Counted from the stretch's first letter, positions 37,078 to 63,024 are shown. The stretch is DNA of 64,000 bases from Opitutus sp. GAS368 (GCA_945871085.1 CAMBVX010000001.1:7347-71346); one strand, 5' to 3'. Numbers and translations are program-made. The notes: generated by a model not told the origin, from the sequence alone.

Positions 37078-37103
37078 GGGGTCGAGCGGGTGGCGGCACC
37101 AGG

Positions 37104-47230: not shown

Positions 47231-47249
47231 GTGCGGCGGAGTTCGGAAG

Positions 47250-47612
47250 ATTTTCGGAACGGCAGGCAGGACGCGGGCCACTGCGCGGAGGCAGCAAGAG
47301 AAAGCTTAAGAGAAAGAGGAAAAAGAACGAGAACGATCGGGAGAACGAGAACGAGAACGATCGGGAGAACGAGAACGATCGGGCGAACGAGAACGATTAG
47401 GAGAACGAGAACGATCGGGCGAACGAGAACGATTAGGAGAACGAGCACGATCGGGAGAACGAGAACGATTAGGAGAACGAGAACGATTAGGAGAACGAGA
47501 ACGATCGGGCGTAGCCACAGGCCTCCGTGCCTGTGGGGTTTGGGGGCGGGTGCGCGCGGATTTTCGGCACGGCAGGCAGGGACGCGGGCCGCTGCGCGGA
47601 GCGGCCGGTTTT
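47250..47612 (+). repeat. Composite spacer element: partial R1 (hairpin B) + 18-nt tandem array + R1 copy
   Basis: cggaacGGCAGGCaggacgcgggccactgcgcggaggcagc, then the array at 47296-47508, then GCGTAGCCACAGGCctccgtGCCTGTGGggtttgggg...cacGGCAGGCagggacgcgggccgctgcgcggag. Confidence 0.85.
47296..47508 (+). repeat. Tandem array of about 10 x 18-nt units GAGAACGAGAACGAT(CGG/TAG)
   Basis: Units alternate GAGAACGAGAACGATCGG, GCGAACGAGAACGATTAG and GAGAACGAGCACGATCGG. A degenerate AAGAGAAAG lead-in precedes them. Confidence 0.92.
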
Positions 47613-47623
47613 TTCCGGCACGG

Positions 47624-49282
47624 CTACGCCGGGAGCGGAATCTTCGCTGCGGCGGGCGTGAACGTCACGGCGAAGATCGCGGCGGGTGCCGGGCCGATCA
47701 CGAGCGTGGCGTTGAGTTGCGTGGTCAAGTCGCCCACGAGTTGCAGGCCGAGGGAGTCGCCGCGCCGCGCCGCGAAATCCGGCGGCAGGCCGACCCCGTC
47801 GTCGCTCACGCGCAGGCAAATCTGCGTGCTGCCGGCGACGGGCTGTAAGGCGATCCGCACTTCGCCGCCGCGCCCGGCGGGGAAGCCGTGTTTGAGGCAG
47901 TTCGAAATCAATTCGTTCACCAACAGACCGCAGGGTGCGGCCTGATCCATCGTGACGGTGATGGGCGCGAGTTCCAGCGTGAGCCGGACGAGGGCGGGCG
48001 CGGCGTTGAGCATACGGAAGGACTGCGTGGCAATTTGCCCCAAGTAGCTGCCGAGGTCGACGGCGGCGAAGGTGCCGGAGCGGTAAAGCATATCGTGCAG
48101 CTGCGCCATCGCGCGGATGCGCCCCTGCATGTCGGTGAGCACCGTCTTCGTGGCGGGCACGTCGCTCCGCCCGCTCTCGAGGCGCAGGAGGCTGGTGATC
48201 ACCTGCAGGTTGTTCTTCACCCGGTGGTGGACTTCGTTCAACAGCGCGGTCTTTTCGTGGAGGGAGGCTTGCAGGGCGACCTGCGCCCGTTTGCGGACGC
48301 TGATGTTCTTATGCGCCATGACGGCCCCCGCGCGCGACCCCGCCAGACGGGTGATGGTGAGGAGGAACCACCGATCCTCCGTCGGCGAGTGGCCGGGATA
48401 CTCCAGCTCAAACTGCTCCTGTTGCCCGGCCAAGACCGCGCTTAGCCCCGCTGCCACCGCGCTCGCCTCAGCTCCGTCGCGAAACGTCGCCGCCGCCCCG
48501 TGCACCTCCAGGTAGTTCGCGCCCACGGAATAGTTTCCGCGATCGGAGGCCCCGTGGTCTGCGGCGAATTGTTTCCACGCGCGGTTGACGAAGATGATGA
48601 CCGCCCGCTCGTCCAGCACGGCGATATGGTCGGACATCGAGTCCAAGATCTGGCCGTGTTCGATTTCACGCTGGCGAAGGACGGCCTCCACCTGCTTGCG
48701 GGTGGAGATGTCCGTCAGCACCAGGCTCAGCACCGTCTCGCCGTTGGTGCCGGTGTCGGCGCGCACCACAAGATTGACCCAGAGGGGCGGACCGTCGCCG
48801 CGCACCAAACGCAGGTCAGCCGAGTGCACGTTTGGCGCCGGTGCCGCGTCGGCCGGCCGAGCCTCGAGCGCCTGTTTCTTCAGGAAGTAATAGGGGTCCT
48901 GGTCGTCCTTGAGGATAAATTGGGCGAACGACTGGTGGACCAGCGCGCCTCGCGCCACGCCGAGCAACGTGCTGAGGGTGAGGTTGGACTGCAGGATTTT
49001 TCCGGCGGCGCTGACGGTGCAGTAGCCGACCGGGGCGAGGTCGTAGAGGTCGAAATAACGCGCGCGGGAAAGCTCCAGTTCGCCCTGCGCGCGGCGCAGT
49101 TCCTCTTTCTGCATCTCCAGCTCGATTTGGTGGACTTGGAGCTCGTGCAGAATGATCTGGGCCGCCTCGGGGGCGACGGGGTCCGGGCTGGCCGGCGACG
49201 CGGCGGCCTGGGCGCGGTGAGCGGCTTCGGCCTCGGCGCGGAGTGCGGCGGGGGTGCGGGATAAATCGTCGGGCGGTATCAT
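47624..49282 (-). CDS. PAS-PAS histidine kinase of the HisKA_2/HWE-type
   Basis: N-terminus ILHELQVHQIELEMQKEELRRAQ, two PAS domains, H-box EVHHRVKNNLQVITSLLRLE, and an ATPase region LVNELISNCLKHGF...DDGVGLP...SLGLQLV. Confidence 0.88.
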   Translation of the reverse strand: MIPPDDLSRTPAALRAEAEAAHRAQAAASPASPDPVAPEAAQIILHELQVHQIELEMQKEELRRAQGELELSRARYFDLYDLAPVGYCTVSAAGKILQSNLTLSTLLGVARGALVHQSFAQFILKDDQDPYYFLKKQALEARPADAAPAPNVHSADLRLVRGDGPPLWVNLVVRADTGTNGETVLSLVLTDISTRKQVEAVLRQREIEHGQILDSMSDHIAVLDERAVIIFVNRAWKQFAADHGASDRGNYSVGANYLEVHGAAATFRDGAEASAVAAGLSAVLAGQQEQFELEYPGHSPTEDRWFLLTITRLAGSRAGAVMAHKNISVRKRAQVALQASLHEKTALLNEVHHRVKNNLQVITSLLRLESGRSDVPATKTVLTDMQGRIRAMAQLHDMLYRSGTFAAVDLGSYLGQIATQSFRMLNAAPALVRLTLELAPITVTMDQAAPCGLLVNELISNCLKHGFPAGRGGEVRIALQPVAGSTQICLRVSDDGVGLPPDFAARRGDSLGLQLVGDLTTQLNATLVIGPAPAAIFAVTFTPAAAKIPLPA

Positions 49283-50274
49283 GATGGGGCTCCTTCGCGC
49301 GCAGGTCGGCGGGCACTGAGATCTTGGAGGAAAACGACGAGTTGCCCGCCCTCGACCGGGCGAAATTGGAAACTGACTTCGACCTCAAAGGTGGTCCGGT
49401 CCTTGCGGCGATGGCGGCAGGTAAAAACTCGGCCGTCACCGGCCAATACTTGTTGAAGGTGGGCGGCGGTGGCGGCGGCCGTCGAGGGGTCTTCGAGCTC
49501 GGAGATGTGCATCGTGAGCAGTTCATGCACGTCGTAGCCGCTCATGCGGCAATAGGTCTCGTTGACTTCCAGCAGCTGGCCGCGGGCATCGGCCAGCCAG
49601 AAGCCGGCCATGGCCGTTTGGAGGATGGCCCAGTGCTGCTCTTCGCGCTCCCGCAACGCCTCCTCCAGCTGCGTGCGCTCCGTAATGTCGCTCAGCACCA
49701 GGCGGAGCGTGGGGGCGCCGCCTGCTTCCGGCGCGACCGCCGCCGTCAGGTGCATGAGCCGGGGCGGGCCATCGGGCGGGAGGATCAACCACTCGCCCGA
49801 GAGCGATTTAACGGCCGACCCGGCGGCGGCCGCCTCGGACGTGAGGTGGTGCCGGAGCTGGAGGTAAAATTTGTCGGTGTCGGCCGGGGCGAGGAAACGG
49901 GCGAACGGTTGCCGGAGCAACGCGCGGTGGGGCAGCCCGAGGAGCGCGGCGAGGGTGAGGTTGGTCTCGATCAGCCGGCCCGCCGCGTCGAGGGTGCAGT
50001 AGCCGACGGGTGCGAGGTGATAGAGATCTGAATACCGCGCGCGGGAGGCGTCGAGTTTCGCCTGAGCGTGGCGCAGTTCCTCGTTCTGCATTTCCAGCTC
50101 GATCTGGTGCAAGCGCAGCTCGTGCAGCAGCAGTGGGATTTCGGCGGGCGTCGCCGCCGCGGAAGGGGCGGCGAGGTCGCGGGCGTTGTTGTGCAAGAAC
50201 GCGGACTCCGCCCGCGCGCGGAGGGCGGCGGACGGATCGGCGGCGGCGGCGGAAAGATCAGGCGACGGTTTCAT
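49279..50274 (-). CDS. PAS-only sensor protein (coiled-coil N-terminus + 2 PAS)
   Basis: LLHELRLHQIELEMQNEELRHAQ...YSDLYHLAPVGYCTL. A second PAS follows (WAILQTAMAGFWLAD...), with no output domain. The stop overlaps the downstream kinase start by 4 nt. Confidence 0.8.
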   Translation of the reverse strand: MKPSPDLSAAAADPSAALRARAESAFLHNNARDLAAPSAAATPAEIPLLLHELRLHQIELEMQNEELRHAQAKLDASRARYSDLYHLAPVGYCTLDAAGRLIETNLTLAALLGLPHRALLRQPFARFLAPADTDKFYLQLRHHLTSEAAAAGSAVKSLSGEWLILPPDGPPRLMHLTAAVAPEAGGAPTLRLVLSDITERTQLEEALREREEQHWAILQTAMAGFWLADARGQLLEVNETYCRMSGYDVHELLTMHISELEDPSTAAATAAHLQQVLAGDGRVFTCRHRRKDRTTFEVEVSFQFRPVEGGQLVVFLQDLSARRPAREGAPS

Positions 50275-50295
50275 GGGCGGGCGGGCGCAGGAAAA

Positions 50296-50640
50296 GTTTT
50301 TCAGATCGGCAGGCCGGGACGCCGGCCGCTACGCGGAGGCAGAACGAGAACGAGAACGATTAGGAGAAAGTGAAAGTGAAAGGGAAAGAGAAAGTGAAAG
50401 TGGAGGAGGAGAACGAGAACGATGGGTGGAGCCACAAACCCCCATCGGTTTGCACCGCAGAGACCCCATCTTCAGAGCGCAGAGCAAGGCAGGGGTTTTC
50501 TCTGCGTCGCCGAATTCCGCGTCTCTGCGGTGCAAAAAATCTGCGGCTTGAAAATGCCCACAGCACAACAACCCACCCAGATAACGGCCTATCGTGACGC
50601 GCTACAGCCGGGACGCCGGCCGTTACGCTGAGGGATTTGG
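50296..50640 (+). repeat. Composite spacer element: partial R1 + hexamer tract + degenerate hairpins + R1-like tail
   Basis: cGGCAGGCCGGgacgCCGGCCGCTACGCGGAGGCA, then the tract at 50342-50424, then ggagccacaaacccccatcggtttg, then tctctgcgtcgccgaattccgcgtctctgcggtgcaaaaaa, then cagCCGGgacgCCGGccgttacgctgagg. Confidence 0.75.
50342..50424 (+). repeat. Mixed hexamer microsatellite (GAGAAC and GTGAAA/GAAAGT units)
   Basis: gaacgagaacgagaacgattaggagaaagtgaaagtgaaagggaaagagaaagtgaaagtggaggaggagaacgagaacgatgg. Confidence 0.88.
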
Positions 50641-50649
50641 CCGGGGTGG

Positions 50650-53600
50650 TCATGGGGCGCCGGCCTCTGCCGTCCGTTCCGTCGTGGCGATCGCATACGG
50701 CCGGCCCCTTTCGTTGATCAGGACGGTCGCGATCATCGAAATTTCCACGATCTGGCCGGATTTGGTGAGGCGCTGCGTGCGATAGGGCTCCAGCACTTTC
50801 GCGTGGCTGAGCTCTCGCATTTTCTCACTCTCCTGGTACCGCTGCGCGGGCGGGATGCGGTCGCTCGCGTTCATCGTCAGCGCCTCGGCTTCGCTCCAGC
50901 CATACATCCGCACGGCGCCTGGATTCCACGCGAGGATGCGGCCGTTCAGATCCTTGACCGTGATGGCATCGTGCGCATCGCGCACCACCACCGCCAGCCG
51001 CAGCAGGTCGTTGGCTTCGCGCAAGGCGGCGCGCGTTTGCGCGATCTCGGTCACGTCCACGAATGAGATCACGGCGCCCTCGATCACGTTTTCCAGCGTG
51101 CGGTAGGGCTGGATCTTCATCACGTAGCTTTCGCCCGCGAGGGTCTGCACAGGGATCTCCTTGGTCACGAGCGTGTCGAGCACCACTTTCAAATCGTTGA
51201 TGAGGCCGGTGTAACTCACGAGATTCGAGACGATGTGCGCGACCGGCCGCCCGACGTCGGTCGGGATCAGGTTGATGATGACGCTGGCCGCGGGGGTGAA
51301 ACGCAGAATGCGCAGCTGATGGTCCACGAACACCGTGCCGATGCCGGTGCCGGCGAGCAGGTTGTTCATGTCGTTGTTCATCCGCGAGAGATCGACCACC
51401 TTGGTCTGCAACTCGGTATTGATGGTGGCCAGTTCCTCGTTGAGCGACTGCAACTCCTCCTTGGAGGTTTCCAGTTCCTCGTTGGTGGATTGCAGCTCTT
51501 CGTTGATGGACTGCATTTCCTCGTTCGACGACTTGAGCTCCTCGGAGGAGCTCTCCAGTTCGGCGCTGGTGCTTTGCAGATATTCCTCCGTGGCGCGGAG
51601 TTCGGCCTTGAGCGCGGCGATGCGCTCGGCGGCGTCTGGCGAAAGGGTGCCGTGCGCCACGGGCGCGAGGTCGTCGCTCATGGCGACGACCGACGGTGGC
51701 GCCGGGGCCGCGAGCGGCGCTTCCTCGAGGATGACCAGAAAGAGTGGCGCCTCCGGGGACGCGCCCGGGCCGGAGGTCACCGGCCGGATGGTGAGGTTGA
51801 CTGTGGTGAAGTGGCCGTTGGTTTTTACGCGCAGGCCCGGGTGGACGCCGGTGTCGCCGGTGCCCACCGCCCTGTACAGGCCGGAGGTCAGCTCGCGGCG
51901 CAGGCCCTCGCGAGCCATCTTAAGGATGTTGTTGAGGCCGGCCTCGCCGGGGCTGGGCTCGAGAAACAGGCCGGTGCGACCGTGCAGATAGAGGATATCA
52001 CCGTGGGCGTTGACCAGCGCGCCGGCGGCGATGATCTGCGCGAGCAGCGCGTGCTCGGTGGTTTCGCGCAGCGAACTGCGTGCGCCTTTGGCCGCCGCTA
52101 TTTTTTCCTGCGCCGATGGCAGCGCCGCACCCGTCGCCGTGATGGGTGGCCGGAAGAGCCGGAGGGCCGCGCGTTGCTGGCCCTGCAAGTCAGCTTTGCG
52201 CTGATACAGATTGGCCTTGCGGTCGATGGCGCTGAACAGGCCGTTAAACTCGCCCACGCCTTCGGACGTGCCGAGGAACAGGGTGCCCTCCGCTTTCAGC
52301 GCATGGTGAAAGAGCGGGATGAGTTTCTTCTGCAGGTCCGTGCCCAGGTAGATCAGCAGATTCCGGCAACTGATCAGATCGAGTTTGGAGAAGGGCGGGT
52401 CTTTGATGACGTCCTGCTTGGAAAATACCAGCAGGTCGCGGATGCCTTTGTGGATGCGGTAGGCGCTGCCGTCGGCTTCGGCGGTGAAAAAACGCGCCAG
52501 GCGCTCCGGCGAGAGGTCGGCGGCGATGCTCGCCGGGAAGAGCCCGGTCCGGGCGGTGGCGATGGCCTGGCTGTCGATGTCGGTGGCGAACACCTGCACC
52601 GGGAAGCTGGCCTTGAGGGCCTCCATGCGCTCGACCAGCAGAATGGCGATCGAGTAGGCCTCCTCGCCGGTGGAGCAACCCGTGCTCCAGACACGGATCA
52701 CCGCGCCGGGGGATTTGTGCGCAAAGAGAGTCGGGATGACCTGATCCTCCAGCACCTGAAAGGCCTCGGGATCGCGGAAGAAATTGGTGACGCCAATGAG
52801 CAGGTCCCGAAACAGCGCCTCCACCTCGGCGGAAGTCTGCTGCAGATATTTGACGTAGTTGTCGATCCCCTCGATCTGGTGCACCGCGATGCGCCGGTCG
52901 ACGCGGCGGTGGATGGTGCTGGGTTTGTAGAGGGAAAAGTCGTGGCCGGTCTGGGCGCGCAGCAGCTGGAAAATTTTCTTCATCGCGCCCTCGACGTGGG
53001 GCGCGGAGAGGGTGGTGGCTTTGGGGAGTTTCCTCAAGGCGTGGGTGGCGTAGGCGATCAGCTGCGCGGGCATCTCGGCCGGCGGCAGCTCGTAGTCCAC
53101 GAGGCCGGTGCCGATGGCGCTGCGCGGCATGCCGTCGAACTCGGTCGATTCCGCGTTCTGCGCCATGACCATGCCGCCCTCGGCCTTGATGGCGCGCACG
53201 CCCTGGGTGCCGTCGCTGCCGGTGCCCGAGAGGACGATGCCGATGGCACGCTCGTGCTGATCCGCAGCGAGGGAGCGGAAGAAAAAATCGATCGGCAGGC
53301 GGTGGCCGCGCGGCTCGCCGGGTTCGAGCAACTGCAGCGTGCCATTGACGAACGCCATGTCGCGGCCGGGCGGAATGATGTAGGCGCAGTTGGGCTGCAC
53401 GACCATGCCGTCCTCGACCTCAAAGACCTGCATGCGCGTGCAGCGGCGAATGAGTTCGGAGAGGATGCTCTTGTAGTCCGGGGCCAAATGTTGCACGAGC
53501 ACGAAGGCCATGTCCGTATCGACGGCGGCGGGCATGCCGGCGAAAAACGCCTCGAAGGCGGCGAGGCCGCCGGCGGATGCACCGAGGCCGACAATCGGAA

Positions 53601-53745
53601 AACCGAGGGCGGCAGGTGCGGGGGCTGCCGGGGAATCGGCGGCGGGCGAAGCCGCGGGCGCCGGAGCGGGGGCCGGAGCGGGTGGCCGCGCGGGCGGGGT
53701 GGCGGAGGAAGTAGCAAGGTCCGGATTGTCTTTAGAGCTTTTCAT
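50650..53745 (-). CDS. CheB methylesterase - CheR methyltransferase fusion with coiled coil and C-terminal PAS domains (no kinase domain)
   Basis: Start MKSSKDNPD at 53745. CheB block IVGLGASAGGLAAFEAFF...VLSGTGSDGTQG. CheR block IRVWSTGCSTGEEAYSIAILL...DLISCRNLLIYL. Heptad tract ELKSSNEEMQSINEELQSTNEELETSKEELQSLNEEL. Two PAS-like domains, then the stop. Confidence 0.88.
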   Translation of the reverse strand: MKSSKDNPDLATSSATPPARPPAPAPAPAPAASPAADSPAAPAPAALGFPIVGLGASAGGLAAFEAFFAGMPAAVDTDMAFVLVQHLAPDYKSILSELIRRCTRMQVFEVEDGMVVQPNCAYIIPPGRDMAFVNGTLQLLEPGEPRGHRLPIDFFFRSLAADQHERAIGIVLSGTGSDGTQGVRAIKAEGGMVMAQNAESTEFDGMPRSAIGTGLVDYELPPAEMPAQLIAYATHALRKLPKATTLSAPHVEGAMKKIFQLLRAQTGHDFSLYKPSTIHRRVDRRIAVHQIEGIDNYVKYLQQTSAEVEALFRDLLIGVTNFFRDPEAFQVLEDQVIPTLFAHKSPGAVIRVWSTGCSTGEEAYSIAILLVERMEALKASFPVQVFATDIDSQAIATARTGLFPASIAADLSPERLARFFTAEADGSAYRIHKGIRDLLVFSKQDVIKDPPFSKLDLISCRNLLIYLGTDLQKKLIPLFHHALKAEGTLFLGTSEGVGEFNGLFSAIDRKANLYQRKADLQGQQRAALRLFRPPITATGAALPSAQEKIAAAKGARSSLRETTEHALLAQIIAAGALVNAHGDILYLHGRTGLFLEPSPGEAGLNNILKMAREGLRRELTSGLYRAVGTGDTGVHPGLRVKTNGHFTTVNLTIRPVTSGPGASPEAPLFLVILEEAPLAAPAPPSVVAMSDDLAPVAHGTLSPDAAERIAALKAELRATEEYLQSTSAELESSSEELKSSNEEMQSINEELQSTNEELETSKEELQSLNEELATINTELQTKVVDLSRMNNDMNNLLAGTGIGTVFVDHQLRILRFTPAASVIINLIPTDVGRPVAHIVSNLVSYTGLINDLKVVLDTLVTKEIPVQTLAGESYVMKIQPYRTLENVIEGAVISFVDVTEIAQTRAALREANDLLRLAVVVRDAHDAITVKDLNGRILAWNPGAVRMYGWSEAEALTMNASDRIPPAQRYQESEKMRELSHAKVLEPYRTQRLTKSGQIVEISMIATVLINERGRPYAIATTERTAEAGAP

Positions 53746-53956
53746 AATGACGCCTTCATTTTCGTCGCAGGACTGACGGTGGAGAGAAGCACGGCCGGGG
53801 TGGTGGGGCCACATAATTCACGCTGCGGGGTGGGGTGTCGGCATGATTCACCCCGCTGGGCGCGGCGAGCGCGCCGCTGGCCCCGAAGAGCCGAGCGGGG
53901 GAGTGCGCGCGGCGTGTGGTGCGGCCGAGGAAACGACGCCATAAATCCAGCCGACC

Positions 53957-53970
53957 TTGATGCGGATCAA
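53957..53970. promoter_or_regulatory. FNR/CRP-family (FNR/Dnr/NnrR-type) box, perfect consensus TTGAT-GCGG-ATCAA
   Basis: Centre at 53963.5. A -10-like TACTCT at 53993-53998 lies 29.5 nt from the centre (class II geometry). The porin ATG is at 54027. Confidence 0.7.
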
Positions 53971-54026
53971 GCTCCGCTGGTCGGTCGGATGTTACTCTAC
54001 CGCTGATTAAAAAAGCACTCGTCACC

Positions 54027-55232
54027 ATGCACGCACCACCTCGTCACCTCGTTGCTCTCTTCGCCGTCTTCACGGGCTCGCTGCTCGCCGCCGATTCGTT
54101 CGGCGACGCCTTGGAGCAAGGCACGGTCTCGCTCAACGCCCGCCTCCGCTCCGAAGGTGTGCAACAGACCAGTCTCCGCGCCGCCGATGCGATCACGCTG
54201 CGCACGCGGCTCGGTTTCACCACCGCGCCTTGGCAAGGTCTGAAGGCCATGGTCGAGGCGGAGAACATCCTCGCGGGCAACGGCGACCGCTACAGTCAGG
54301 CCGGCCTGAATCCCGCCGCCACCGGCCGCGCCGTCGTCGCCGATCCCGAGACCAGCGAAATCAACCAAGTGTTGCTCGCCTACACGTCCGGCAAAACCAC
54401 CGCGACGCTCGGCCGCCAACGCCTCGTCTTGGACAACGCGCGCTTCATCGGCGACGTCGGCTGGCGGCAAAACATGCAGACCTTCGATGCCTTCGTCGTG
54501 CAGGACAAAACCCTCGACAAGACGACACTCACTTACGGCTACCTCGACCAGATCAACCGCGTCTTCGGCGACGATCACCCGCAGGGCAAATGGCCGTCCG
54601 ACTCCCACGTGCTCAATGCCAGCTACACCGGCTTCGCCGCCGGCACGTTCACCGGCTACGCCTACCTGCTCGATTTTGCGAAAACCGCCGCCGCGAATTC
54701 CTGCGCGACCTACGGCGCCAGTTTCGCCGGCACGCAGCCGCTCAGTGCCGACGTAAAATTCGCCTACCGCGCCGAGCTCGCCACGCAGTCCGACTACGGC
54801 TCCAGCGCGCTGAATTATGCGACGACCTACGCCGCCGTTTCCGCCGGTCTCGTGGTGCAACCCGGCACGCTCACGCTCGGCTATGAACAACTCGGCTCCG
54901 ACAATAAAGTTGGTTTCAAAACTCCCCTCGCCACGCTCCACGCTTTTAACGGCTGGGCCGATCTCTTCCTCGCCACGCCCGCCGCCGGCTTGCAAGAAAC
55001 CTCGGTGCGCGCGACCGCCAACCTCCCCGAGAATATCGCGCTCACCGCCTCGTATAGCCGTTTCGAGACCGACGTCGGCCGCGCGAAACTCGGAAAAGAA
55101 TTCGATGTGCAGCTCTCCCGAAAATTTGGCAAATCCGTTACCGGCCTCCTCAAATTCGCCAACTTCCGCCGCGACAGTCTGACGTTGCCCAACGTCCAGA
55201 AAATCTGGATGCAGGTCGAGTTCGTTTACTAG
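54027..55232 (+). CDS. Outer-membrane porin (alginate-export-like barrel family)
   Basis: Signal peptide HLVALFAVFTGSLLAADS. RFIGDVGWRQNMQTFDAF block as I recall it from Alginate_exp-type porins. C-terminal ...IWMQVEFVY (aromatic terminus). Confidence 0.7.
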   Translation: MHAPPRHLVALFAVFTGSLLAADSFGDALEQGTVSLNARLRSEGVQQTSLRAADAITLRTRLGFTTAPWQGLKAMVEAENILAGNGDRYSQAGLNPAATGRAVVADPETSEINQVLLAYTSGKTTATLGRQRLVLDNARFIGDVGWRQNMQTFDAFVVQDKTLDKTTLTYGYLDQINRVFGDDHPQGKWPSDSHVLNASYTGFAAGTFTGYAYLLDFAKTAAANSCATYGASFAGTQPLSADVKFAYRAELATQSDYGSSALNYATTYAAVSAGLVVQPGTLTLGYEQLGSDNKVGFKTPLATLHAFNGWADLFLATPAAGLQETSVRATANLPENIALTASYSRFETDVGRAKLGKEFDVQLSRKFGKSVTGLLKFANFRRDSLTLPNVQKIWMQVEFVY

Positions 55233-55245
55233 CCCGGTCTTGATG

Positions 55246-55665
55246 TTTTGTCATCGCGAGAGCTGAACCAAGGCGCGGCGCCTTGGGTGCCCGGGGCAAT
55301 GAACTTTGTTTGTCATGGCGAGCTCGGAGCAAGCGAGCTTGCGGGGTGGTGGCAGTGAACCGGACAAGGTTTGTCATTGCGAAGGAGGCTTGCCGACTGT
55401 GGCAATCCATCTGGAAACGCACCGTGGATTGCCGCAGTCGCTGAGGCTCCTTCGCAATGACAAACAGCGGCTGTTTCCTAGAAGAAGCGCAGCGACGTGG
55501 CCATCCATCTGGAATTTCAGCTGGATTGCCGCGCCCGCCAAGCCGGGCTCGCAATGACAAACTGTATGTGTTCATTCGCAGGAGCAGCCCTCCGCGCGGC
55601 GACGAAGCAATCCAGCTGGATCGCCACGCCGCGCGCCTTGCGCCACGCGAGGACGATCATTTCGA
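55246..55665 (+). repeat. Cluster of GTCATTGCGA...TCGCAATGAC-type long hairpin repeats (R2 units a-b-c-d-e)
   Basis: For example 55369-55462: TTGTCATTGCGAAGGAGgcttgccgactgtGGCAATCCAtctggaaacgcaccgTGGATTGCCgcagtcgctgaggCTCCTTCGCAATGACAA. Units a, d and e recur in the same order at 57688-57927. Confidence 0.88.
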
Positions 55666-55757
55666 ACCCACGCCCTGCCACTCGGCGCGGCGCGCTAGTG
55701 CTCGTTGCCCCGCGTCGTTCATGATGCTCACCTCGTCGTGCAATGTTAGGTCCCTCG

Positions 55758-55824
55758 CAAAAACGCCGAAAACCACTTGTCACTTATTAAGTGACATCCC
55801 CTCTGAAAATGGCCGGATTTTGTC
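55758..55824 (-). repeat. About 69-nt palindrome-bearing repeat (copy 2, inverted relative to 20254-20322)
   Basis: caaaaacgccgaaaaccacttgtcacttattaagtgacatcccctctgaaaatggccggattttgtc. Palindrome TGTCACTTA-T-TAAGTGACA at 55778-55796. Confidence 0.8.
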
Positions 55825-55902
55825 CGGCGACTTAACAGGGTAATACTCGATCACTGAGCCGGTCGACTGACCGCCGCCCCCGGTGAATTTCCCTCCCGAA
55901 CG

Positions 55903-55916
55903 TTGACGCACGTCAA
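55903..55916. promoter_or_regulatory. FNR/Dnr/NnrR-type box TTGAC-GCAC-GTCAA with matching -10
   Basis: Centre at 55909.5. TATAAA at 55939-55944 starts 29.5 nt from the centre (class II, -41.5 geometry). The shared downstream string CTTGCGCTAYAA also occurs after the 58063 box. The NirK-like ATG is at 55985. Confidence 0.75.
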
Positions 55917-55984
55917 AGCGCCGTGGGTCACCTTGCGCTATAAATCGGCACAGTTCCGTCGCCAATTTTCCAACGTTTATTCCT

Positions 55985-57607
55985 ATGCATGCTACCTCCC
56001 TTAAACTCGGTTCACCTCGTCTGGTCGCCGGCTTCGGTCTTGCCGCGGCCCTGTTCATCGTCCCCGTCACTTTGGCCTGCGAAGCCTGTAACAGTGTCAT
56101 GGCAAAGCGCCTGCTCGGCGGCAACAGCCCCTCGGTGCACGCGGCCGAACTCACCGCCTTGGTGAAAAATTCCGGCTGGAACGGTGCCGCCAATCTCCTG
56201 GCCTTTGCGGGCGGCGCCCCGTTTCAGAGTTCCGCCGGTGGCGGTGGTGGCGCCGCCGCTCCCGCGGCGACTCCGCCCGTTGCACCCCCGCACCCGTTTC
56301 AGGCCGTCATCGATCGGGATAAAAAACTACCCATGTGGGAGACCAGCTACGTCGTCCCCGGCACCAAGCCCGACAAGAAATTTCGCCTCGAGATGAACGA
56401 AGGCGATGTCTTCATCGGCAACGGCGTCGTCTACAGCGGATTCACCGTCAACGGCACGATTCCCGGCCCGACGCTCATCGCCGAGGAGGGCGACGTGATT
56501 GAGCTGACGGCCGTCAACAACGGCGGCGTGCCGCATGGCATGTCCATCCACGCCGCCTACACGCAGACCTCGAAATACCTCGGCAAGATCGCCCCCGGGG
56601 CGACGGCGTCCATGCTCTTTCGCGTCAACCACCCCGGCGTCTACATGTATCACTGCGCCCCGGGCGGACACGCGATCCCGATGCACACGCTGCTGGGCCA
56701 GTATGGCATGTTCGTCGTCAAGCCCAAGACGGTGAAGTTCAAGGCCGAGCAGATCATCGGCCACAAACCCGACGTCGAACTCTACATCGTGCAGCATGAA
56801 CTTTACGCCAGCGGCAAGGAAGCCGTCGAAGGCCACGCGGCCTACGTCCTGTTCAACGGCAAACTATTCCGCTACGTCGAGAGCCCGATCAAAGTGCGCC
56901 CGGGTGATTTTGTGCGGATCAACTTCCTCAACGTCGGCCCGAACCTCATCTCCACGTTCCATCTCGTCGGCATCATTTGGGATTACGCCTACTGGCAGGG
57001 CACGCCGACGCCGGAGAACACCTTCACCGGCGGCCAGAGCGTCACCGCCGGCCCGACGGACTCCTGGGTCGTCGATTTCCGCGTGCCACCGGACGAGGGC
57101 AACTACCTGATCGTGACGCATGCCTTCGGCTCGACGACGCGCGGTGCGATCGGCGTGCTCGCCGCTGCGAAGGACGCCGTGCGCACGCCCACAGTGTTGG
57201 CCGACGGTCCGGCCTACTCCGAGGCCGCGATGAAGGAACACACGGCCAAAGCCGCGCGCGTCATCTCGCCGTTCAAGGCGACCAAGGATGAACTCGAGAA
57301 TCCCTCCACGCTCCCGGCCGGGCAGAAGAAACTCCGCATTCAAATCATCGGAAATTCCTACTGGCCGAAAGTGGCCTCGGTGCCCCCCGGCACCACGGTC
57401 GAGTGGGTGAACGAAGATATTTTCACCTTCGCGAGCGGTGAGTTTGCGGGCGTCCACGACGCCGTGACCAGCGAAGCCCCGGAACATTTCGCCTCCAAGA
57501 TGCTCGGCCACGCCGAAAAATGGAGCACGGTTCTGACGAAGAAGGGCGACTACAAATTCTACTGCACACCGCATCCGTATATGGAAGGCATCATCCGCGT
57601 CGAGTGA
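55985..57607 (+). CDS. Copper-containing nitrite reductase (NirK)-like two-domain multicopper protein with C-terminal cupredoxin fusion
   Basis: PHGMSIHAA (T1/T2 His pair spacing as H95/H100), YMYHCAPGGHAIPMH (His-Cys T2/T1 pair), and a second-domain STFHLVGIIWDY (H306-like). The last about 100 aa form a separate blue-copper domain, GTTVEWVNED...GVHDAV...YKFYCTPHPYMEGIIRVE (Cys-x2-His-x2-Met). The N-terminus has a membrane/signal segment and a Gly/Ala/Pro linker. Confidence 0.75.
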   Translation: MHATSLKLGSPRLVAGFGLAAALFIVPVTLACEACNSVMAKRLLGGNSPSVHAAELTALVKNSGWNGAANLLAFAGGAPFQSSAGGGGGAAAPAATPPVAPPHPFQAVIDRDKKLPMWETSYVVPGTKPDKKFRLEMNEGDVFIGNGVVYSGFTVNGTIPGPTLIAEEGDVIELTAVNNGGVPHGMSIHAAYTQTSKYLGKIAPGATASMLFRVNHPGVYMYHCAPGGHAIPMHTLLGQYGMFVVKPKTVKFKAEQIIGHKPDVELYIVQHELYASGKEAVEGHAAYVLFNGKLFRYVESPIKVRPGDFVRINFLNVGPNLISTFHLVGIIWDYAYWQGTPTPENTFTGGQSVTAGPTDSWVVDFRVPPDEGNYLIVTHAFGSTTRGAIGVLAAAKDAVRTPTVLADGPAYSEAAMKEHTAKAARVISPFKATKDELENPSTLPAGQKKLRIQIIGNSYWPKVASVPPGTTVEWVNEDIFTFASGEFAGVHDAVTSEAPEHFASKMLGHAEKWSTVLTKKGDYKFYCTPHPYMEGIIRVE

Positions 57608-57687
57608 CGCTCCGCGCCGCCTGCACGGGCGACCCCTCGGGCGGGTCGGTCGGACCTTCAGCATTAACCTGCCGCCGTGGCCTCTGG

Positions 57688-57927
57688 TTGGTCATGGCGA
57701 GAGCTCGGGCCAACGCCGGGCCGTTGGGTGAAAGGGGCGATGAACGTTGTTGGTCATGGCGAGGAACGCAGCGACGTGGCCATCCATCTGGAAATTCAGC
57801 TGGATTGCCGCGCCCCCAAAGCCGGGCTCGCAATGACAAACCCTATGAGTGCATTGGCAGGGAGGCTCTGCCGACCGCGGCAAGCCAGCTGGATTGCTTC
57901 GGCGCTGCGCTTCTCGCCATGACAACC
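57688..57927 (+). repeat. Second R2 hairpin-repeat cluster (units a'-d'-e'), direct repeat of parts of 55246-55665
   Basis: ttggtcatggcgagagctcgggccaacgccgggccgttgggtg..gatgaacgttgt parallels 55246-55308. gcgaggaacgcagcgacgtggccatccatctggaaattcagctggattgccgcgcccccaaagccgggctcgcaatgacaaac is about 95% identical to 55480-55562. Confidence 0.88.
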
Positions 57928-58062
57928 AACGATGCTTCGCTGGCGTAAGTTGACGCTTACGGGCTGGCCGACTCGCTCCCTCTTGCGCCCGGACCACGAG
58001 TCCGGGCGCCGTTGTGTCCGGACGTCGGCGCGGGAACGAAGGCGGGTTTCCGCACGCAAACC

Positions 58063-58076
58063 TTGACCTCGGTCAA
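58063..58076. promoter_or_regulatory. FNR/Dnr/NnrR-type box TTGAC-CTCG-GTCAA (within 18-nt palindrome CCTTGACCTCGGTCAAGG)
   Basis: Centre at 58069.5. The -10-like TACAAC at 58099-58104 sits inside CTTTGCGCTACAA, the same string as at the NirK promoter. The predicted TSS is at about 58111, which coincides with the first ATG of the next gene. Confidence 0.7.
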
Positions 58077-58110
58077 GGCGGCGCGCGCGCCTTTGCGCTA
58101 CAACTGCGCC

Positions 58111-59565
58111 ATGCCACCCCCCACGGCCACCTTCCCCGCCAGCGCCCGATTCGCCCCGCGCCTCGCGGGTGCGGCGCAGTCGGATGCGTCCGTCTCCGCC
58201 TCGGCCCTCCAACCGGCCCGCGGCTGGTTTCTTTTCGCCATTGGCAGCCTCGTGCTCGCCGGCCTGCTTTCACTCCTGCTCGTCGTCGGCCGGCTGCCGT
58301 TTCTCGGCTGGCTGTTCACCGATCCGCTCTTTTTCAAACGCGCCCTCGTGGTCCACGTCGATCTCGCGATCGTCGTCTGGTTTCAAGCCGGCACGCTCGC
58401 GTTTCTCGCTCTGGCCGTCGGCCCGCGTCTCCACCGCGGTGTGACGGCGGCCGCGCTCGCGCTCGCGGCGGCGGGCATCGTCGGCTTGCTCGTCGGCGCG
58501 GTGATGCCGGGTGCGCAACCCGTCCTCTCCAACTACGTCCCGGTGATCGACCACCCGATTTTTTTCGGCGGACTCATCGCCTGGTTTGCCGGCTCCGGTT
58601 TATTCTTCGCCCTCGCGCTCGCCACACCCTCGCGCACCGACGCGAAGGCGCTCTCCGCCGATGTCGTGATCGCCCTGCGCGCCTCGGCCGTCGCGAATCT
58701 CCTGGCGGTGGTCACCTTCCTGGGAGCGTGGCAAACGACGCCGGATTCCGTGCCGGGCGTATTTTATGAGCTCCTGTTCTGGGGCGGCGGTCATGTCCTG
58801 CAAACGGCCAACGTCGCCGCGATGCTCGCCCTGTGGTTGCACCTGTTGCACCGCTGGACGGGTAGGGTGGTGCTGACCCCGGCCATCGCAACCGCCCTGC
58901 TCGCCGCGCTCGTCGCGCCGCAGGTCGTCATGCCGCCGCTGGCCTTCGGGGGCACGACCGCCACGAGCTATTTCTCCATGGCCACTCACCTCATGCGTTG
59001 GACGATTTTCCCCGTGGTGCTGGTCGTGCTCGGCGCCGCGACCCTCCACGTGTGGCGGGCGCGGAGGACGGTGAATTGGCGCGACTATCGTTTCCTCGGT
59101 CTCGCCGGCAGCGCGTCGCTGACGCTCCTCGGATTTATTCTCGGGGCGCTGATCCGCAGTTCGAGCACGCTCGTGCCGGGCCACTACCACTGTGCCATCG
59201 GCGCGGTGACGATCGCGTTGATGGCGGCGGCCTATGATTTCTGCGCCGCTGTCGCGCCGCACGGTGCCGCGGCCGAAACACCGCGTCGCGCGCGTCTGCA
59301 GCTCCTGCTCTTCGGTGGTGGCCAGGCGGTCTTCGGCCTCGGATTCGCGCTGGCCGGCACCTACGGGCTCGGGCGCAAACAATACGGTGCCGAGCAGCAC
59401 GTACGTTCGCTCGGCGAATACTTCGGCCTCAGCGTCATGGGCCTCGGCGGCTTCGTGGCCGTGGCCGGCGGGATATTTTTCCTCGCGGTGATGCTGCGCC
59501 GGATCGGCGCGTGGCATCGTGATTTTTCTCCCGTCACCTCATCCCTCCATGAACAACGAACCTGA
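58111..59565 (+). CDS. Haem-copper-oxidase subunit-I-like polytopic membrane protein lacking the helix-VII CuB His-His pair
   Basis: Aligns by eye with the subunit I at 60277: LLFWGGGHVLQTANVAAMLALWLHLLH vs LIWWGLGHQSQQVNVCAMVSVWYLISH; LVPGHYHCAIGAVTIALMAAAY vs RIPGHFHVTVVGGTTLAFMALAY; VVHVDLAIVVW vs TFHGINMLILW. Where the partner has SAHHLLVDP this protein has LVAPQVVMPP. The start at 58111 is uncertain. Confidence 0.7.
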   Translation: MPPPTATFPASARFAPRLAGAAQSDASVSASALQPARGWFLFAIGSLVLAGLLSLLLVVGRLPFLGWLFTDPLFFKRALVVHVDLAIVVWFQAGTLAFLALAVGPRLHRGVTAAALALAAAGIVGLLVGAVMPGAQPVLSNYVPVIDHPIFFGGLIAWFAGSGLFFALALATPSRTDAKALSADVVIALRASAVANLLAVVTFLGAWQTTPDSVPGVFYELLFWGGGHVLQTANVAAMLALWLHLLHRWTGRVVLTPAIATALLAALVAPQVVMPPLAFGGTTATSYFSMATHLMRWTIFPVVLVVLGAATLHVWRARRTVNWRDYRFLGLAGSASLTLLGFILGALIRSSSTLVPGHYHCAIGAVTIALMAAAYDFCAAVAPHGAAAETPRRARLQLLLFGGGQAVFGLGFALAGTYGLGRKQYGAEQHVRSLGEYFGLSVMGLGGFVAVAGGIFFLAVMLRRIGAWHRDFSPVTSSLHEQRT

Positions 59566-59698
59566 AAAACATCCGTGGCAGAAAGTGCTCGATAACCCGT
59601 GGCTGCTCCTCGTCCTCGGCGTCCTGATACCGATTTTGTCCTACACCGTGTGGGGCTGGGTCGAACTCGTCCTCACCAAACCCGCGTTGCTGCCCTGA
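59549..59698 (+). CDS. Small single-TM protein, candidate ba3-type subunit IIa analogue (not in supplied ORF track)
   Basis: ATG at 59549, TGA at 59696-59698. MNNEPEKHPWQKVLDNPWLLLVLGVLIPILSYTVWGWVELVLTKPALLP (49 aa, one hydrophobic helix). Lies immediately 5' of a one-TM CuA subunit II and overlaps the preceding gene by 17 nt. Confidence 0.5.
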   Translation: MNNEPEKHPWQKVLDNPWLLLVLGVLIPILSYTVWGWVELVLTKPALLP

Positions 59699-59713
59699 AC
59701 CCCCTCTTTTCCC

Positions 59714-60265
59714 ATGAGCTTAAGTCCTCTCACCAAACCGTGGTTTCACGCGCCGGCGGGCCACGAAAAAATCTGGCTCGGCTGCGCGGTCCTCTGGTGC
59801 TTCGTGATGTCGCTGATGATGCCGTACTGGCATTTTCGCGGTAAACAAAACAGCACCGGCGAAGCCTACACCGTTAAACCGGCCGACTTCCTCGCTCGCA
59901 CCGAAAAGTTCGTCGCGTCGAACAAGGTCGGCACCTATAAAAATACCAACCACAACGCGCTCATGCCCGAGTTGCCCCTCGTCGAGCCGCCGGCCGGCGG
60001 CGACGCCTACTTGATCGGCCGCATGTGGCACTGGTATCCGGCGCTGCGCCTGCGCATGGGCGAGACCTATCGCCTGCACCTCTCGGCGCTCGACTTGCAG
60101 CACGGCTTCTCGCTGCAACCGATCAATATGAATTTCCAGGTGCTGCCCGGCTACGATCACGTGCTCACCTTCACTCCGACTTCGAAGGGCGAGTTCACCA
60201 TCGTCTGCAATGAATTTTGCGGCGCCGGCCATCACGCCATGTCCGGAAAAATCTTTGTCGAATAA
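59714..60265 (+). CDS. Haem-copper oxidase subunit II (single TM + CuA cupredoxin domain)
   Basis: One TM (IWLGCAVLWCFVMSLMMPYW). CuA ligand pattern LQHGFS ... CNEFCGAGHHAMSGKIFV (H, C-x-E-x-C-x3-H-x2-M). Confidence 0.88.
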   Translation: MSLSPLTKPWFHAPAGHEKIWLGCAVLWCFVMSLMMPYWHFRGKQNSTGEAYTVKPADFLARTEKFVASNKVGTYKNTNHNALMPELPLVEPPAGGDAYLIGRMWHWYPALRLRMGETYRLHLSALDLQHGFSLQPINMNFQVLPGYDHVLTFTPTSKGEFTIVCNEFCGAGHHAMSGKIFVE

Positions 60266-60276
60266 CCGCCCCCGCC

Positions 60277-61980
60277 ATGTCCACTCCCTCTCATTCACTC
60301 TCCGCTCCGGGCACGCCCGGTCGCGTGTGCGGCACGACCGGCCTCGGTGTCTGCCTCGACGCCCAACGCTTCATCAAGCTCAATGCCGTCGCCGGCATTG
60401 TCTTCCTCCTCCTCGGTGGCATCGCCGCGCTCCTGCTCGCGCTCACGCGTTGGCAGACCGTGCACCTGCTCCCCGTCGACTGGTTTTATCGGATCCTGAC
60501 GTTCCACGGCATCAACATGCTGATCCTGTGGATACTCTTCTTCGAGATCGCCATCCTCTACTTCGCCTGCACGACGCCGCTCAATTCCCGGCTCTTCTCG
60601 CGCAAGATTGCCTGGGTCTCGTTCGGGATGATGCTCACCGGCGCCATCATGGTGGATTACATCATCATCGCCGGACAAGCCGACGTGATGATGACTTCCT
60701 ACCTGCCGCTGCTGGCGCATCCGCTCTTCTACCTCGGGATCATTCTCGTCGCCGTCGGCACATTGGTGGGCGTGTTTAATTTCTTCGCCACCCTCTACGT
60801 CGCGAAACGGGACCAGACCTACACCGGCTCCGTGCCGATCGTCACGTTCGGTGCCACCGCCGCCGCCATCATCGCCGTCGTCACTTTGTTGCACGGCGCC
60901 GTCGTGATGATCCCGACGTTTACTTATTCGATGGGTTGGACGCCGCAGCCCGACCCCGCGTGGTATCGCCTCATCTGGTGGGGCCTCGGTCACCAATCGC
61001 AGCAGGTCAACGTCTGCGCGATGGTCTCCGTCTGGTATCTGATTTCGCACATCGTCGTCGGTGCCCGCCCGATCAACGAGGCCGTCTGTCGCACCGCCTT
61101 TGTGCTGTACATTCTTTTTATCAATCTCGCCTCGGCCCATCATCTCCTCGTCGATCCCGCAGTCGGTGCCACGTGGAAGATCTGGAACACGTCCTACGCC
61201 ATGTATCTCGCGGTGCTCGCCTCGATGGTACACGGCTTCACCGTCCCCGCCGGCGTCGAAATTGCCATGCGTGAAAAGGGCTACACGAGCGGGATTTTCG
61301 GTTGGGTCACGGCGCTGCCGTGGAAGAACCCCGCGTTCTCCGGCACCGCGTTGTCGGTCGTCATCTTCGGGTTCCTCGGCGGCATCACCGGCGTCACGCT
61401 CGGCACGCAGCAGATCAATATCATCGCGCACAACACCCTGCGCATCCCCGGTCACTTCCACGTGACCGTCGTCGGCGGCACGACCCTGGCGTTCATGGCG
61501 CTCGCCTACTACGTGATCCCGCTGATCTTCCAACGCGACTTCATCTTCCGCGGGGTCGCCCGCCTGCAACCGTGGTTGTTCGGACTCGGGATCGTGATGC
61601 TTTCCTTCGGCATGTCGTTCGCCGGTTCGATGGGTGTTTCCCGCCGTAGTTGGGATATTGATGCGCAAGGTGTCTATGGTCCCGCGGCCCACCTCTGGCT
61701 CGGCGTGCTCGGCCTCGGTGGCGTCCTCGCCTTCGTCGGTCTGCTCGTCTTCGCGCTGCTCTGTGTCGGCACACTCTTCTTCGGGCCGAAAATTGAACAC
61801 CGCGCCATGGCCGACTGGGGCACACCGCCCGCCCTCGCCGGTTCGGAATCCGGCTCACTGGCCAATGACCACTACGCCACCAAGGGCACGATGGTCCTCG
61901 TCCTCGTTTTCCTCGCCTGCTTCGCGGTCTATTATTTCGCGAACTGGAAGGCTCTCGCCGACGTCTGGCCCGTGCGCTGA
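60277..61980 (+). CDS. B-family-like haem-copper oxidase subunit I lacking the His-Tyr cross-link tyrosine (NO-reductase-like variant)
   Basis: ATG at 60277 (MSTPSHSL). Ligand set present: helix II LTFHGINM, CuB WWGLGH, SAHHLLVDP, helix X IPGHFHVTV. It is collinear with Thermus ba3 as I recall it (FWWTGHPIVYFW / HHQFADP / GWIRALPWDNPAF vs GWVTALPWKNPAF / PGHFHLQV). The His+4 position is Gln (GHQSQQV), not Tyr. Confidence 0.85.
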   Translation: MSTPSHSLSAPGTPGRVCGTTGLGVCLDAQRFIKLNAVAGIVFLLLGGIAALLLALTRWQTVHLLPVDWFYRILTFHGINMLILWILFFEIAILYFACTTPLNSRLFSRKIAWVSFGMMLTGAIMVDYIIIAGQADVMMTSYLPLLAHPLFYLGIILVAVGTLVGVFNFFATLYVAKRDQTYTGSVPIVTFGATAAAIIAVVTLLHGAVVMIPTFTYSMGWTPQPDPAWYRLIWWGLGHQSQQVNVCAMVSVWYLISHIVVGARPINEAVCRTAFVLYILFINLASAHHLLVDPAVGATWKIWNTSYAMYLAVLASMVHGFTVPAGVEIAMREKGYTSGIFGWVTALPWKNPAFSGTALSVVIFGFLGGITGVTLGTQQINIIAHNTLRIPGHFHVTVVGGTTLAFMALAYYVIPLIFQRDFIFRGVARLQPWLFGLGIVMLSFGMSFAGSMGVSRRSWDIDAQGVYGPAAHLWLGVLGLGGVLAFVGLLVFALLCVGTLFFGPKIEHRAMADWGTPPALAGSESGSLANDHYATKGTMVLVLVFLACFAVYYFANWKALADVWPVR

Positions 61981-62001: not shown

Positions 62002-63024
62002 ATGTCCGTCCCCGTCACCGTGGTTTTTTCGCCCGCGAGTTCCGCCGTTCCTACGCCCATTCCGGGCGGCTGGGGCGGCACGGCACCCGCGCGATTCCTC
62101 ACGGGGCCGGGGCTGCTGGTGTTTCTGCTGACCGCCCTCGCGGGCTATGAAGGATTTTTGCTGCTCACGATTTTCGGTCCAACCGAGGGCGGTTGGCTCG
62201 GAGACTTTGTGCGCGATTTTCAACTCTGGTGTTATCGGGGCGATCCGCGCACCGGCGGGATTTCGTGGCTCGCCGTCTCCGTAATGATGGGTGAGCCGAT
62301 TTTTGTCGTGGGCGTCGCCGCGCTGCTGTGGCGGAAAGTATTCCTTCGGCTGAGTTCGCCCGCGCTCTGGCTGACGCACGCGCGGGCCGCGGGCACCGCG
62401 CTGCTCCTGACGGTGATCGCGGCCGGCGGGCTCCTCTACTATGCGCGCACCGACGCCGTGAGCGCCCAGATCTTGCCGCCCTTCCCCGGGGAGCGCATCC
62501 GCGTCCACCTTGCGCTGCCCGACACCGCACTCATCGACCAGCAGGCCGCGCCGTTCCGTTTCGCCGACCTGCGCGGCCGCGTCGTCCTCGTCACCGGGGT
62601 CTATGCCGCCTGCACCACCGCGTGTCCGGAAATATTCATCGAGTTGAAAAAAATCCTCGGCGAACTTCCCGCCACCGAGCGCGCCGACCTCAGCGTCGTG
62701 GCGCTCTCGCTCAATCCGGAATATGAGACCACCGATCTGATGAACGCCCTCGCCGAGGGCCGCGGCCTCACGCATCCTGAATTCCGTTACGTCAACGCCC
62801 CCGCCCCCGCCGCCATGCACGATGCACTCACGCGGCTCCAGTTCTCCGCCACGCGCAATCCGCAGACCGGCGTGATCGACCACGCCAATCTTTTCCTGCT
62901 CGTCGATCGCTCGAACCACATCGCTTATCGCTTCACCCTCGATGCGCGCCACCGCGCGTGGTTGCGCACCGCCTTGCGGTCCCTCCTCAGCGAAACTCAT
63001 GCCGTCGCCCCACGAGCACCCTGA
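62002..63024 (+). CDS. SCO1/SenC copper chaperone domain fused to an about 170-aa polytopic N-terminal membrane domain
   Basis: C-terminal thioredoxin-fold FRFADLRGRVVLVTGVYAACTTACPEIF...VALSLNPEYET...VIDHANLFLLVD (CxxxC + His). The N-terminal half has about 4 TM helices. The start at ATG 62002 or GTG 61981 is unresolved. Confidence 0.8.
   Translation: MSVPVTVVFSPASSAVPTPIPGGWGGTAPARFLTGPGLLVFLLTALAGYEGFLLLTIFGPTEGGWLGDFVRDFQLWCYRGDPRTGGISWLAVSVMMGEPIFVVGVAALLWRKVFLRLSSPALWLTHARAAGTALLLTVIAAGGLLYYARTDAVSAQILPPFPGERIRVHLALPDTALIDQQAAPFRFADLRGRVVLVTGVYAACTTACPEIFIELKKILGELPATERADLSVVALSLNPEYETTDLMNALAEGRGLTHPEFRYVNAPAPAAMHDALTRLQFSATRNPQTGVIDHANLFLLVDRSNHIAYRFTLDARHRAWLRTALRSLLSETHAVAPRAP

Follow-up and report, generated by a model that had tools for sequence, protein, structure and literature searches.

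Predicted Dnr-type control of a porin-like gene, a TsNirK-type nitrite reductase gene and an atypical haem-copper oxidase operon in Opitutus sp. GAS368

The 64,000-nucleotide stretch of Opitutus sp. GAS368 DNA analysed here (CAMBVX010000001.1:7347-71346; the window) carries three palindromes of the kind read by CRP/FNR-family regulators, which lie in front of a porin-like gene, a copper nitrite reductase gene (nirK), and an operon headed by the gene for HCO1, a very divergent protein of the haem-copper oxidase (HCO) fold. From comparison of these sequences with those of related genomes, we consider it probable that a Dnr-type regulator activates the three promoters in class II fashion, that the genes form a module for nitrite respiration, and that the HCO operon is expressed from a leaderless mRNA. 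The promoter elements, with predicted transcription start sites (TSSs), are as follows.

53957-53970: box 1, TTGATGCGGATCAA, Dnr-type CRP/FNR-family palindrome preceding the porin-like gene
53993-53998, plus strand: -10 hexamer TACTCT; predicted TSS about 54005, leader of 22 nt
55903-55916: box 2, TTGACGCACGTCAA, preceding nirK
55939-55944, plus strand: -10 hexamer TATAAA; predicted TSS about 55951, leader of 34 nt
58063-58076: box 3, TTGACCTCGGTCAA, preceding the HCO operon
58099-58104, plus strand: -10 hexamer TACAAC; predicted TSS at the A of ATG 58111, leaderless mRNA

These three boxes are the only matches to TTGAYNNNNRTCAA in the window, as the original prediction had held; 0.04 matches are expected by chance, and three or more were found in 0 of 100 dinucleotide-preserving shuffles. 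One-mismatch variants of the box are not enriched in the window (5 versus 3.05 expected), and both extra matches fall within coding sequence. The proposed constancy of the spacing was likewise borne out, in that each -10 hexamer starts 22 nt past the end of its box, or 29.5 nt from the box centre, and among the 22 window sites that match TTGA-N6-TCAA with at most one mismatch, a TA at this position is restricted to the three boxes. Each box lies ahead of a plus-strand gene, as claimed, with start codons at ATG 54027 (porin), ATG 55985 (nirK) and ATG 58111 (HCO1). The nirK and HCO1 promoters had also been said to share a string over the -10 hexamer; the strings are indeed related (CCTTGCGCTATAA in nirK versus CTTTGCGCTACAA in HCO1), but the exact CTTTGCGCTAYAA is not present in both, the string common to the two being CYTTGCGCTAYAA, one transition apart. 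No sigma-70 -35/-10 pair was found across 53700-60300, a terminator scan gave nothing above background, and an Rfam scan of the whole window returned zero matches.

The conservation of this arrangement was analysed in 60 loci obtained by a scan with the NirK protein, with one genome per species and approximately 20 kb per genome (loci are cited by L numbers). The closest NirK loci belong to metagenome-assembled genomes of Opitutia/Opitutaceae (66-84% identity), and the relatives include the complete genomes of two named isolates, Lacunisphaera limnophila IG16b (CP016094.1; L065) and Horticoccus sp. (CM134186.1; L066). A TTGA-N6-TCAA box stands upstream of the nirK orthologue in approximately 25 Opitutia loci, nearly all of those having upstream DNA. 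The genes for the porin, HCO1, subunit II, HCO2 and SCO1 are present in Opitutia loci in varying order and orientation, and the box recurs before HCO1 orthologues (L001, L002, L004, L014, L015, L021, L026 and L065) and porin orthologues (L012, L014, L015, L021 and Horticoccus L066); a porin gene that comes directly after nirK has no separate box. In L014 (9919) and L015 (9886), the porin and nirK genes are divergent and share a single palindrome; a -10 hexamer lies 22 nt from it on either side, and the predicted starts are 83 bp apart.

When 34 sites are aligned on the box, the resulting matrix has T at +29.5 in 30/34, A at +30.5 in 31/34, T at +34.5 in 21/34 and G at +27.5 in 24/34, whereas the 22-nt spacer is nearly information-free and the box is flanked by c...gg. 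As read from the aligned sites, this pattern reflects a constant distance between box and -10 hexamer. A 21-kb stretch of the L. limnophila genome has four boxes (0.10 expected), located before ywiC, the operon nirK(cyt c)-nirV-senC, a cupredoxin gene and HCO1. Of the four start codons called, three lie within 1 nt of the box centre +41.5, and ywiC and the cupredoxin gene (L065 4747 and 9285) share the arrangement of HCO1. The same box and spacing stand in front of a porin-nrfH-nrfA operon in Horticoccus sp. (L066 9930-13247). A second Horticoccus match (L066 19231) has neither the -10 spacing nor the flanking gg, and was taken as a chance occurrence. The box and -10 spacing are also kept at a second nitrite reductase operon of the relatives, comprising nirK fused to cytochrome c, nirV (FGE-sulfatase family) and senC (L014 14699, L015 14886, L017 6609 and L065 5595), an operon that the window does not contain.

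The alternative that the palindromes are chance occurrences, or parts of elements of the repetitive extragenic palindromic (REP) or miniature inverted-repeat transposable element (MITE) kind, without regulatory role, draws on the REP-like hairpin elements in both spacers and on the frequency of palindromes in GC-rich genomes. REP/MITE-like palindromic elements occupy 55247-55562 in the porin-nirK spacer, accounting for its length of 753 nt, and further copies lie at 57828-57925. Their ends have the form GTTTGTCATTGCGA...TCGCAATGACAAAC (example arms 55369-55409 and 55425-55465, 88% complementary), and the window has 7 copies of the string TTGTCATTGCGA (one mismatch allowed; 0.30 expected), all of them within the porin-nirK and nirK-HCO1 spacers. 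The boxes, however, are separate from these elements and lie outside the REP units, their number far exceeds the 0.04 expected, and with their fixed -10 hexamers they are kept at orthologous promoters despite differing spacers and gene order. We regard such an origin, which the conservation of the boxes excludes, as having practically no likelihood. The three units may be insulated from one another, or their transcription terminated, by the REP/MITE-like elements.

The start of the HCO operon provides a test of the geometry that does not depend on the -10 hexamer. In nine of nine genomes, HCO1 has its ATG at precisely +41.5 nt relative to the box centre, 7 nt past the hexamer. This coincidence implies a leaderless mRNA and, since a leaderless mRNA begins at its ATG, the HCO1 start codon would mark the TSS, and with it the -41.5 geometry, independently. 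It also bears on the gene caller's choice in contigs L061-L064 of TTG 58012 as the HCO1 start, which gives a protein of 517 residues and places box 3 inside the open reading frame (ORF). A longer HCO1, with the operon read through from nirK and box 3 as coding sequence, has in its favour that automatic call and the fact that the frame is indeed open from 58012. Most homologues, though, have 470-485 residues, their homology starts at the ATG, a GC-rich hairpin and REP units intervene between nirK and the box, and the ATG keeps its +41.5 position even where HCO1 is on the other strand or distant from nirK. We therefore find the long form very improbable; the conserved spacing shows, as far as the alignments can tell, that the TTG 58012 start is wrong and ATG 58111 correct.

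The original prediction placed no regulator gene in the window, and this was upheld by negative phmmer searches with E. coli CRP and FNR and with Opitutia regulators and by a Pfam scan of the large ORFs, also negative. The E. coli sequences served as probes only; the negative window search is meaningful because the same probes detected regulators in related loci. In L002, L014 and L015, a 238-residue protein with cNMP_binding and HTH_Crp_2 domains is encoded just beyond the HCO operon. The family to which it belongs is highly conserved in Opitutia, with 72-95% identity among the 120 homologues listed, and its recognition helix, GTSSETLSRTL, which contains an E-x-x-S-R signature, is invariant in the 114 of these that were aligned. 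In FNR this signature reads TTGAT half-sites, the corresponding helix of E. coli FNR being ETISR. The Opitutia regulator has a conserved Cys-Cys pair only, with no CX2CX5C motif and no FNR-type N-terminal Cys cluster; its best solved relative is Pseudomonas aeruginosa DNR (PDB 3DKW, 100.9 bits), versus 58 bits for FNR and 39 bits for FixK2, and some members of the family are labelled 'dissimilatory nitrate respiration regulator' by JGI. A Dnr-like regulator in the Opitutus genome itself is inferred by orthology.

The Opitutia loci L002 (15679) and L014 (549) have a box of the same spacing just after the regulator gene, before a small gene without Pfam match, whose product begins MSSVLVSPLTPETTLGELV in L002 and MSTALAITPDSRIGDLVA in L014; by its placement, this gene is taken to be another conserved member of the regulon. 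No TTGA-N6-TCAA box was found at the orthologues of this NirK in Bacteroidota, Balneolales and Ignavibacteria, and a different site is therefore likely used in the Bacteroidota and Ignavibacteria loci. The CRP/FNR regulators neighbouring nirK in L029, L045 and L049 (Bacteroidota, Ignavibacteria) have N-terminal Cys motifs and helices of the E-x-x-S-K and E-x-x-I-R types; that the regulators beside box-less nirK genes do not have E-x-x-S-R fits co-variation of protein and site.

The boxes might instead be read, alone or together with the Dnr-like protein, by a true O2-sensing FNR, with a [4Fe-4S] cluster bound by an N-terminal Cys cluster, encoded elsewhere in the genome, in an arrangement resembling the Anr/Dnr or FnrP/NNR cascades; in that case anoxia, and not nitric oxide (NO), would be the signal for the regulon. 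FNR and DNR read practically the same TTGAT-N4-ATCAA box (PMC1274295; PMC3688515), so that the window sequence alone cannot tell one from the other, and the Horticoccus box precedes nrfHA, a classical E. coli FNR target (PMC3688515). Against this, the operon-adjacent CRP/FNR genes of Opitutia encode proteins without the Cys cluster that match DNR best, and no FNR-type protein was found in any Opitutia locus, over the approximately 20 kb searched per genome. A true FNR at these promoters thus appears unlikely to us.

With respect to the preferred reading, Dnr-type class II activation, several observations weigh against it. Neither the window nor the 3.6 kb past its end contains a CRP/FNR gene; the stretch past the end comes from contigs L061-L064, which were recovered through their NirK match, and the contig used agrees with the window to at least 99.7% over 52-64 kb. 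In the alignment of the Opitutia regulator with 3DKW, a Glu aligns with DNR His187, a residue that we take to be the haem ligand of the P. aeruginosa protein, while other histidines are conserved. Of the -10 hexamers in the window, TACTCT ends in T, but the other two, TATAAA and TACAAC, do not. In addition, we know of no documented case of leaderless translation in Verrucomicrobiota. Nevertheless, the original prediction of co-regulation by an FNR-family factor is supported by the footprint, the fixed -10 hexamer, the HCO1 ATG at +41.5 and the Dnr-like regulator in three relatives.

In the scheme that we propose, the three promoters would be activator-dependent and of class II, each with a 14-bp palindrome, cTTGAY-N4-RTCAAgg, centred 41.5 bp upstream of the TSS, a TAnnnT -10 hexamer 22 bp past the box, and no -35 element. 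A CRP/FNR-family dimer would occupy the box and recruit RNA polymerase, the activator most likely being the Dnr-like protein that is operon-adjacent in relatives (E-x-x-S-R helix, no Fe-S Cys cluster) and the signal probably NO and/or low oxygen. Of the products, the AlgE-family channel would probably admit nitrite, the TsNirK-type reductase would convert nitrite to NO, and HCO2 would probably convert NO to N2O, with SCO1/SenC delivering copper and the cytochrome b/ferredoxin protein providing quinol-linked electron input. The operon mRNA would be leaderless, its 5' end the A of ATG 58111. The boxes with their spacing and conservation, the identities of the genes and the family of the regulator in relatives are directly shown by the sequences; the positions of the TSSs, activation as opposed to repression, which regulator acts in this genome, its signal and the NO reductase activity are in each case inferred.

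The first two genes of the proposed regulon are the following.

54027-55232, plus strand: AlgE-family (alginate-export, PF13372) outer-membrane beta-barrel channel, 401 residues (Pfam score 23.6 bits, weak)
55985-57607, plus strand: three-domain copper nitrite reductase of the TsNirK type with C-terminal cupredoxin, 540 residues (PDB 6HBE)

A PDB sequence search with the porin gave nothing useful, and its assignment to the AlgE family was made because nearly all of its homologues carry PF13372; some are named 'alginate export family protein' at NCBI. The porin gene co-occurs with nirK in Opitutia and with nrfHA in Horticoccus; in L. limnophila, nrfHA lies just downstream of the HCO operon (L065 17597-19858). 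That the AlgE-family channel accompanies either type of nitrite reductase suggests a role in the passage of nitrite across the outer membrane.

NirK aligns with Thermus scotoductus TsNirK (PDB 6HBE) over residues 124-539 (432 bits, E 3e-128), and the alignment keeps HGMSIH, with Ser in place of the catalytic Asp, the HC...H...Q type-1 copper ligands and a C-terminal CxxHxxM motif. The protein has the Pfam domains Cu-oxidase_3 and Copper-bind, and scores under the cut-off of the classical NirK hidden Markov model. The Gln-coordinated type-1 copper, the Asp-to-Ser replacement and the C-terminal cupredoxin are thus shared with TsNirK (PMC6400189), but, unlike the crystallised protein, the window NirK has an N-terminal extension of approximately 120 residues (55985-56350), made up of a signal peptide, a conserved CEACNSVM motif and a Gly/Ala/Pro-rich linker. 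Membrane anchoring and copper handling are possible roles for this extension; a lipoprotein assignment was dropped, as TLAC does not fit the standard lipobox. Two further ORFs around nirK, orf142 (57520-57948) and orf128 (55457-55843), were rejected as genes; they have no Pfam match, are not called by the gene caller, and their homology is confined to the overlap with the nirK 3' end.

Six closely spaced plus-strand genes make up the operon behind box 3.

58111-59565, plus strand: HCO1, very divergent HCO-fold protein (Pfam COX1, 35 bits; AlphaFold2 model)
59549-59698, plus strand: conserved ORF of 49 residues, placed after HCO1 and before subunit II (a called gene in L061-L064 and L. limnophila L065)
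59714-60265, plus strand: cupredoxin subunit II with complete CuA motif, CNEFCGAGHHAM
60277-61980, plus strand: HCO2, B-family-like haem-copper subunit I, sNOR-like (COX1, 210 bits)
62002-63024, plus strand: SCO1/SenC copper chaperone
62999-64000 and on to about 65131 (L061), plus strand: cytochrome b and 4Fe-4S ferredoxin fusion, 710 residues

HCO2 matches PDB 7DEG and the Thermus thermophilus ba3 oxidase at approximately 150 bits each. Opposite HPVVY of 7DEG it has HQSQQ, and so the cross-link tyrosine, which is needed for O2 reduction, is absent; AHH and PGHFH are present, and the three CuB/FeB histidines and both haem ligands are kept. These motifs are invariant in 8 Opitutia orthologues, and HCO2 is probably a tyrosine-less B-type enzyme that reduces NO to N2O. 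The NO reductases (NORs) derived from the B family (sNOR, bNOR and eNOR) are tyrosine-less and have a CuA subunit (Murali et al., 2024; PMC11214002). By layout and motifs, the operon may be likened to the proposed sNOR cluster of ammonia oxidisers (norSY-senC; bioRxiv 10.1101/765727; PMC11214002), in which CuA subunit II, tyrosine-less subunit I and SenC/SCO1 follow in the same order; the window operon differs in having HCO1 and the 49-residue ORF in addition at its head and the cytochrome b/ferredoxin fusion at its end. Whether sNOR functions as an NO reductase or as a high-affinity oxidase is debated (bioRxiv 10.1101/765727), and for this reason the co-regulation of HCO2 with NirK under a Dnr-type box is useful circumstantial evidence. 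The fusion protein combines a bc1/b6-type domain with 4Fe-4S ferredoxin and FlpD-like domains (the L. limnophila version has 522 residues), and is a possible module for electron input from quinol to CuA.

A PDB sequence search with HCO1 returned zero matches. Its alignment-based AlphaFold2 model (predicted template modelling score, pTM, 0.81) gave template modelling (TM) scores of 0.6-0.69 to subunit I of A-, B- and C-family oxidases and of NORs, and hhalign related HCO1 to HCO2 with a probability of 98.8%; as modelled, HCO1 is of the twelve-helix subunit I fold. The family is large, widespread and uncharacterised, and comprises 1134 clusters (50% identity) at E<=0.001 and 294 at E<=1e-30. In 123 diverse representatives, H82, H228, H358 and H360 are the sole invariant histidines, compared with six in the canonical enzymes, and the helix-VII His-His pair of the CuB site (two CuB histidines) is absent; Q231, E220, R422 and K423 are also highly conserved. 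The HCO1 family appears to keep both haem sites and one CuB histidine. As gNOR is described as the first HCO family to replace even one of these histidines (PMC11214002), the loss of the helix-VII pair would put HCO1 outside every described HCO family. The best clue to its role is that it always heads the Dnr-type operon with its predicted leaderless mRNA. We raise as tentative, and rather doubtful, suggestions that HCO1 is a new NO-handling haem enzyme or an NO/O2-sensing partner of HCO2, as opposed to a dead paralogue, and that the AlgE-family channel is a dedicated outer-membrane nitrite channel.

FNR/Dnr boxes are classically found before nirK and nor-type genes (PMC1274295; PMC3688515): the DNR motif, CTTGATnnnnATCAAG, lies upstream of nirK, nor and nos genes in proteobacteria (Rodionov et al., 2005; PMC1274295), and FNR-family activators occupy -41.5 at class II promoters (Myers et al., 2013; PMC3688515). 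The DNR regulon of Pseudomonas and denitrifying beta-proteobacteria shares with the window the box (CTTGATnnnnATCAAG versus cTTGAY-N4-RTCAAg), nirK and NO-reductase targets, and a regulator without the FNR Cys motif (PMC1274295). In contrast, the present system belongs to the Verrucomicrobiota (class Opitutia), DNR His187 is not conserved, the HCO operon is predicted to be leaderless, and nirS, norCB and nosZ are replaced as targets by a TsNirK-type enzyme, an AlgE-family channel and a B-type-derived HCO operon. With the class II promoters of E. coli FNR the window promoters have in common the TTGAT-N4-ATCAA consensus and a centre near -41.5 that replaces the -35 element (PMC3688515), but the regulator adjoining the operon in relatives does not have the [4Fe-4S] Cys cluster, and typical E. 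coli sites match the consensus much less closely than the window sites do. Neisseria gonorrhoeae likewise has a small FNR-family regulon centred on a copper NirK (aniA, which is located in the outer membrane and FNR-activated) and NO reduction, although a true FNR acts there together with NarQP and NsrR (PMC1802743). No NsrR-like site was noted in the present sequences, in which no search aimed at one was made.

We found no description in the literature of denitrification control in Opitutia. The newer leads come from HCO1, from the fixed-geometry promoters with their predicted leaderless mRNAs, and from the pairing of an AlgE-family channel with either nitrite reductase type. The box provides a clean conserved signature of nitrite/NO respiration in Opitutia, bacteria found in abundance in groundwater, freshwater and soil, and a search for it across whole genomes can define the regulon. 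Through guilt by association, it ties HCO1, the sNOR-like HCO2 and the AlgE-family channel to nitrite/NO metabolism, and the L. limnophila and Horticoccus sp. isolates, with their complete genomes, make the regulon testable.

Two further features border the proposed regulon. A perfect 9-bp inverted repeat, TGTCACTTA-T-TAAGTGACA (55778-55796), lies approximately 110 nt upstream of box 2; it could form a hairpin or be a further site for a regulator. The block 36439-53814, divergent from the porin promoter, is densely packed with genes for sensor proteins, three of which are given below; it also holds a hybrid kinase, a 1478-residue SBP-PAS-GAF kinase, a PAS-HWE kinase and a PAS protein.

36439-37077: NarL-type response regulator
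37104-39269: HisKA_3 kinase
50650-53814, minus strand: CheB-CheR-PAS fusion, upstream of and divergent from the porin gene

Through this block, signals of nitrate, nitrite or redox state might reach the same physiology.

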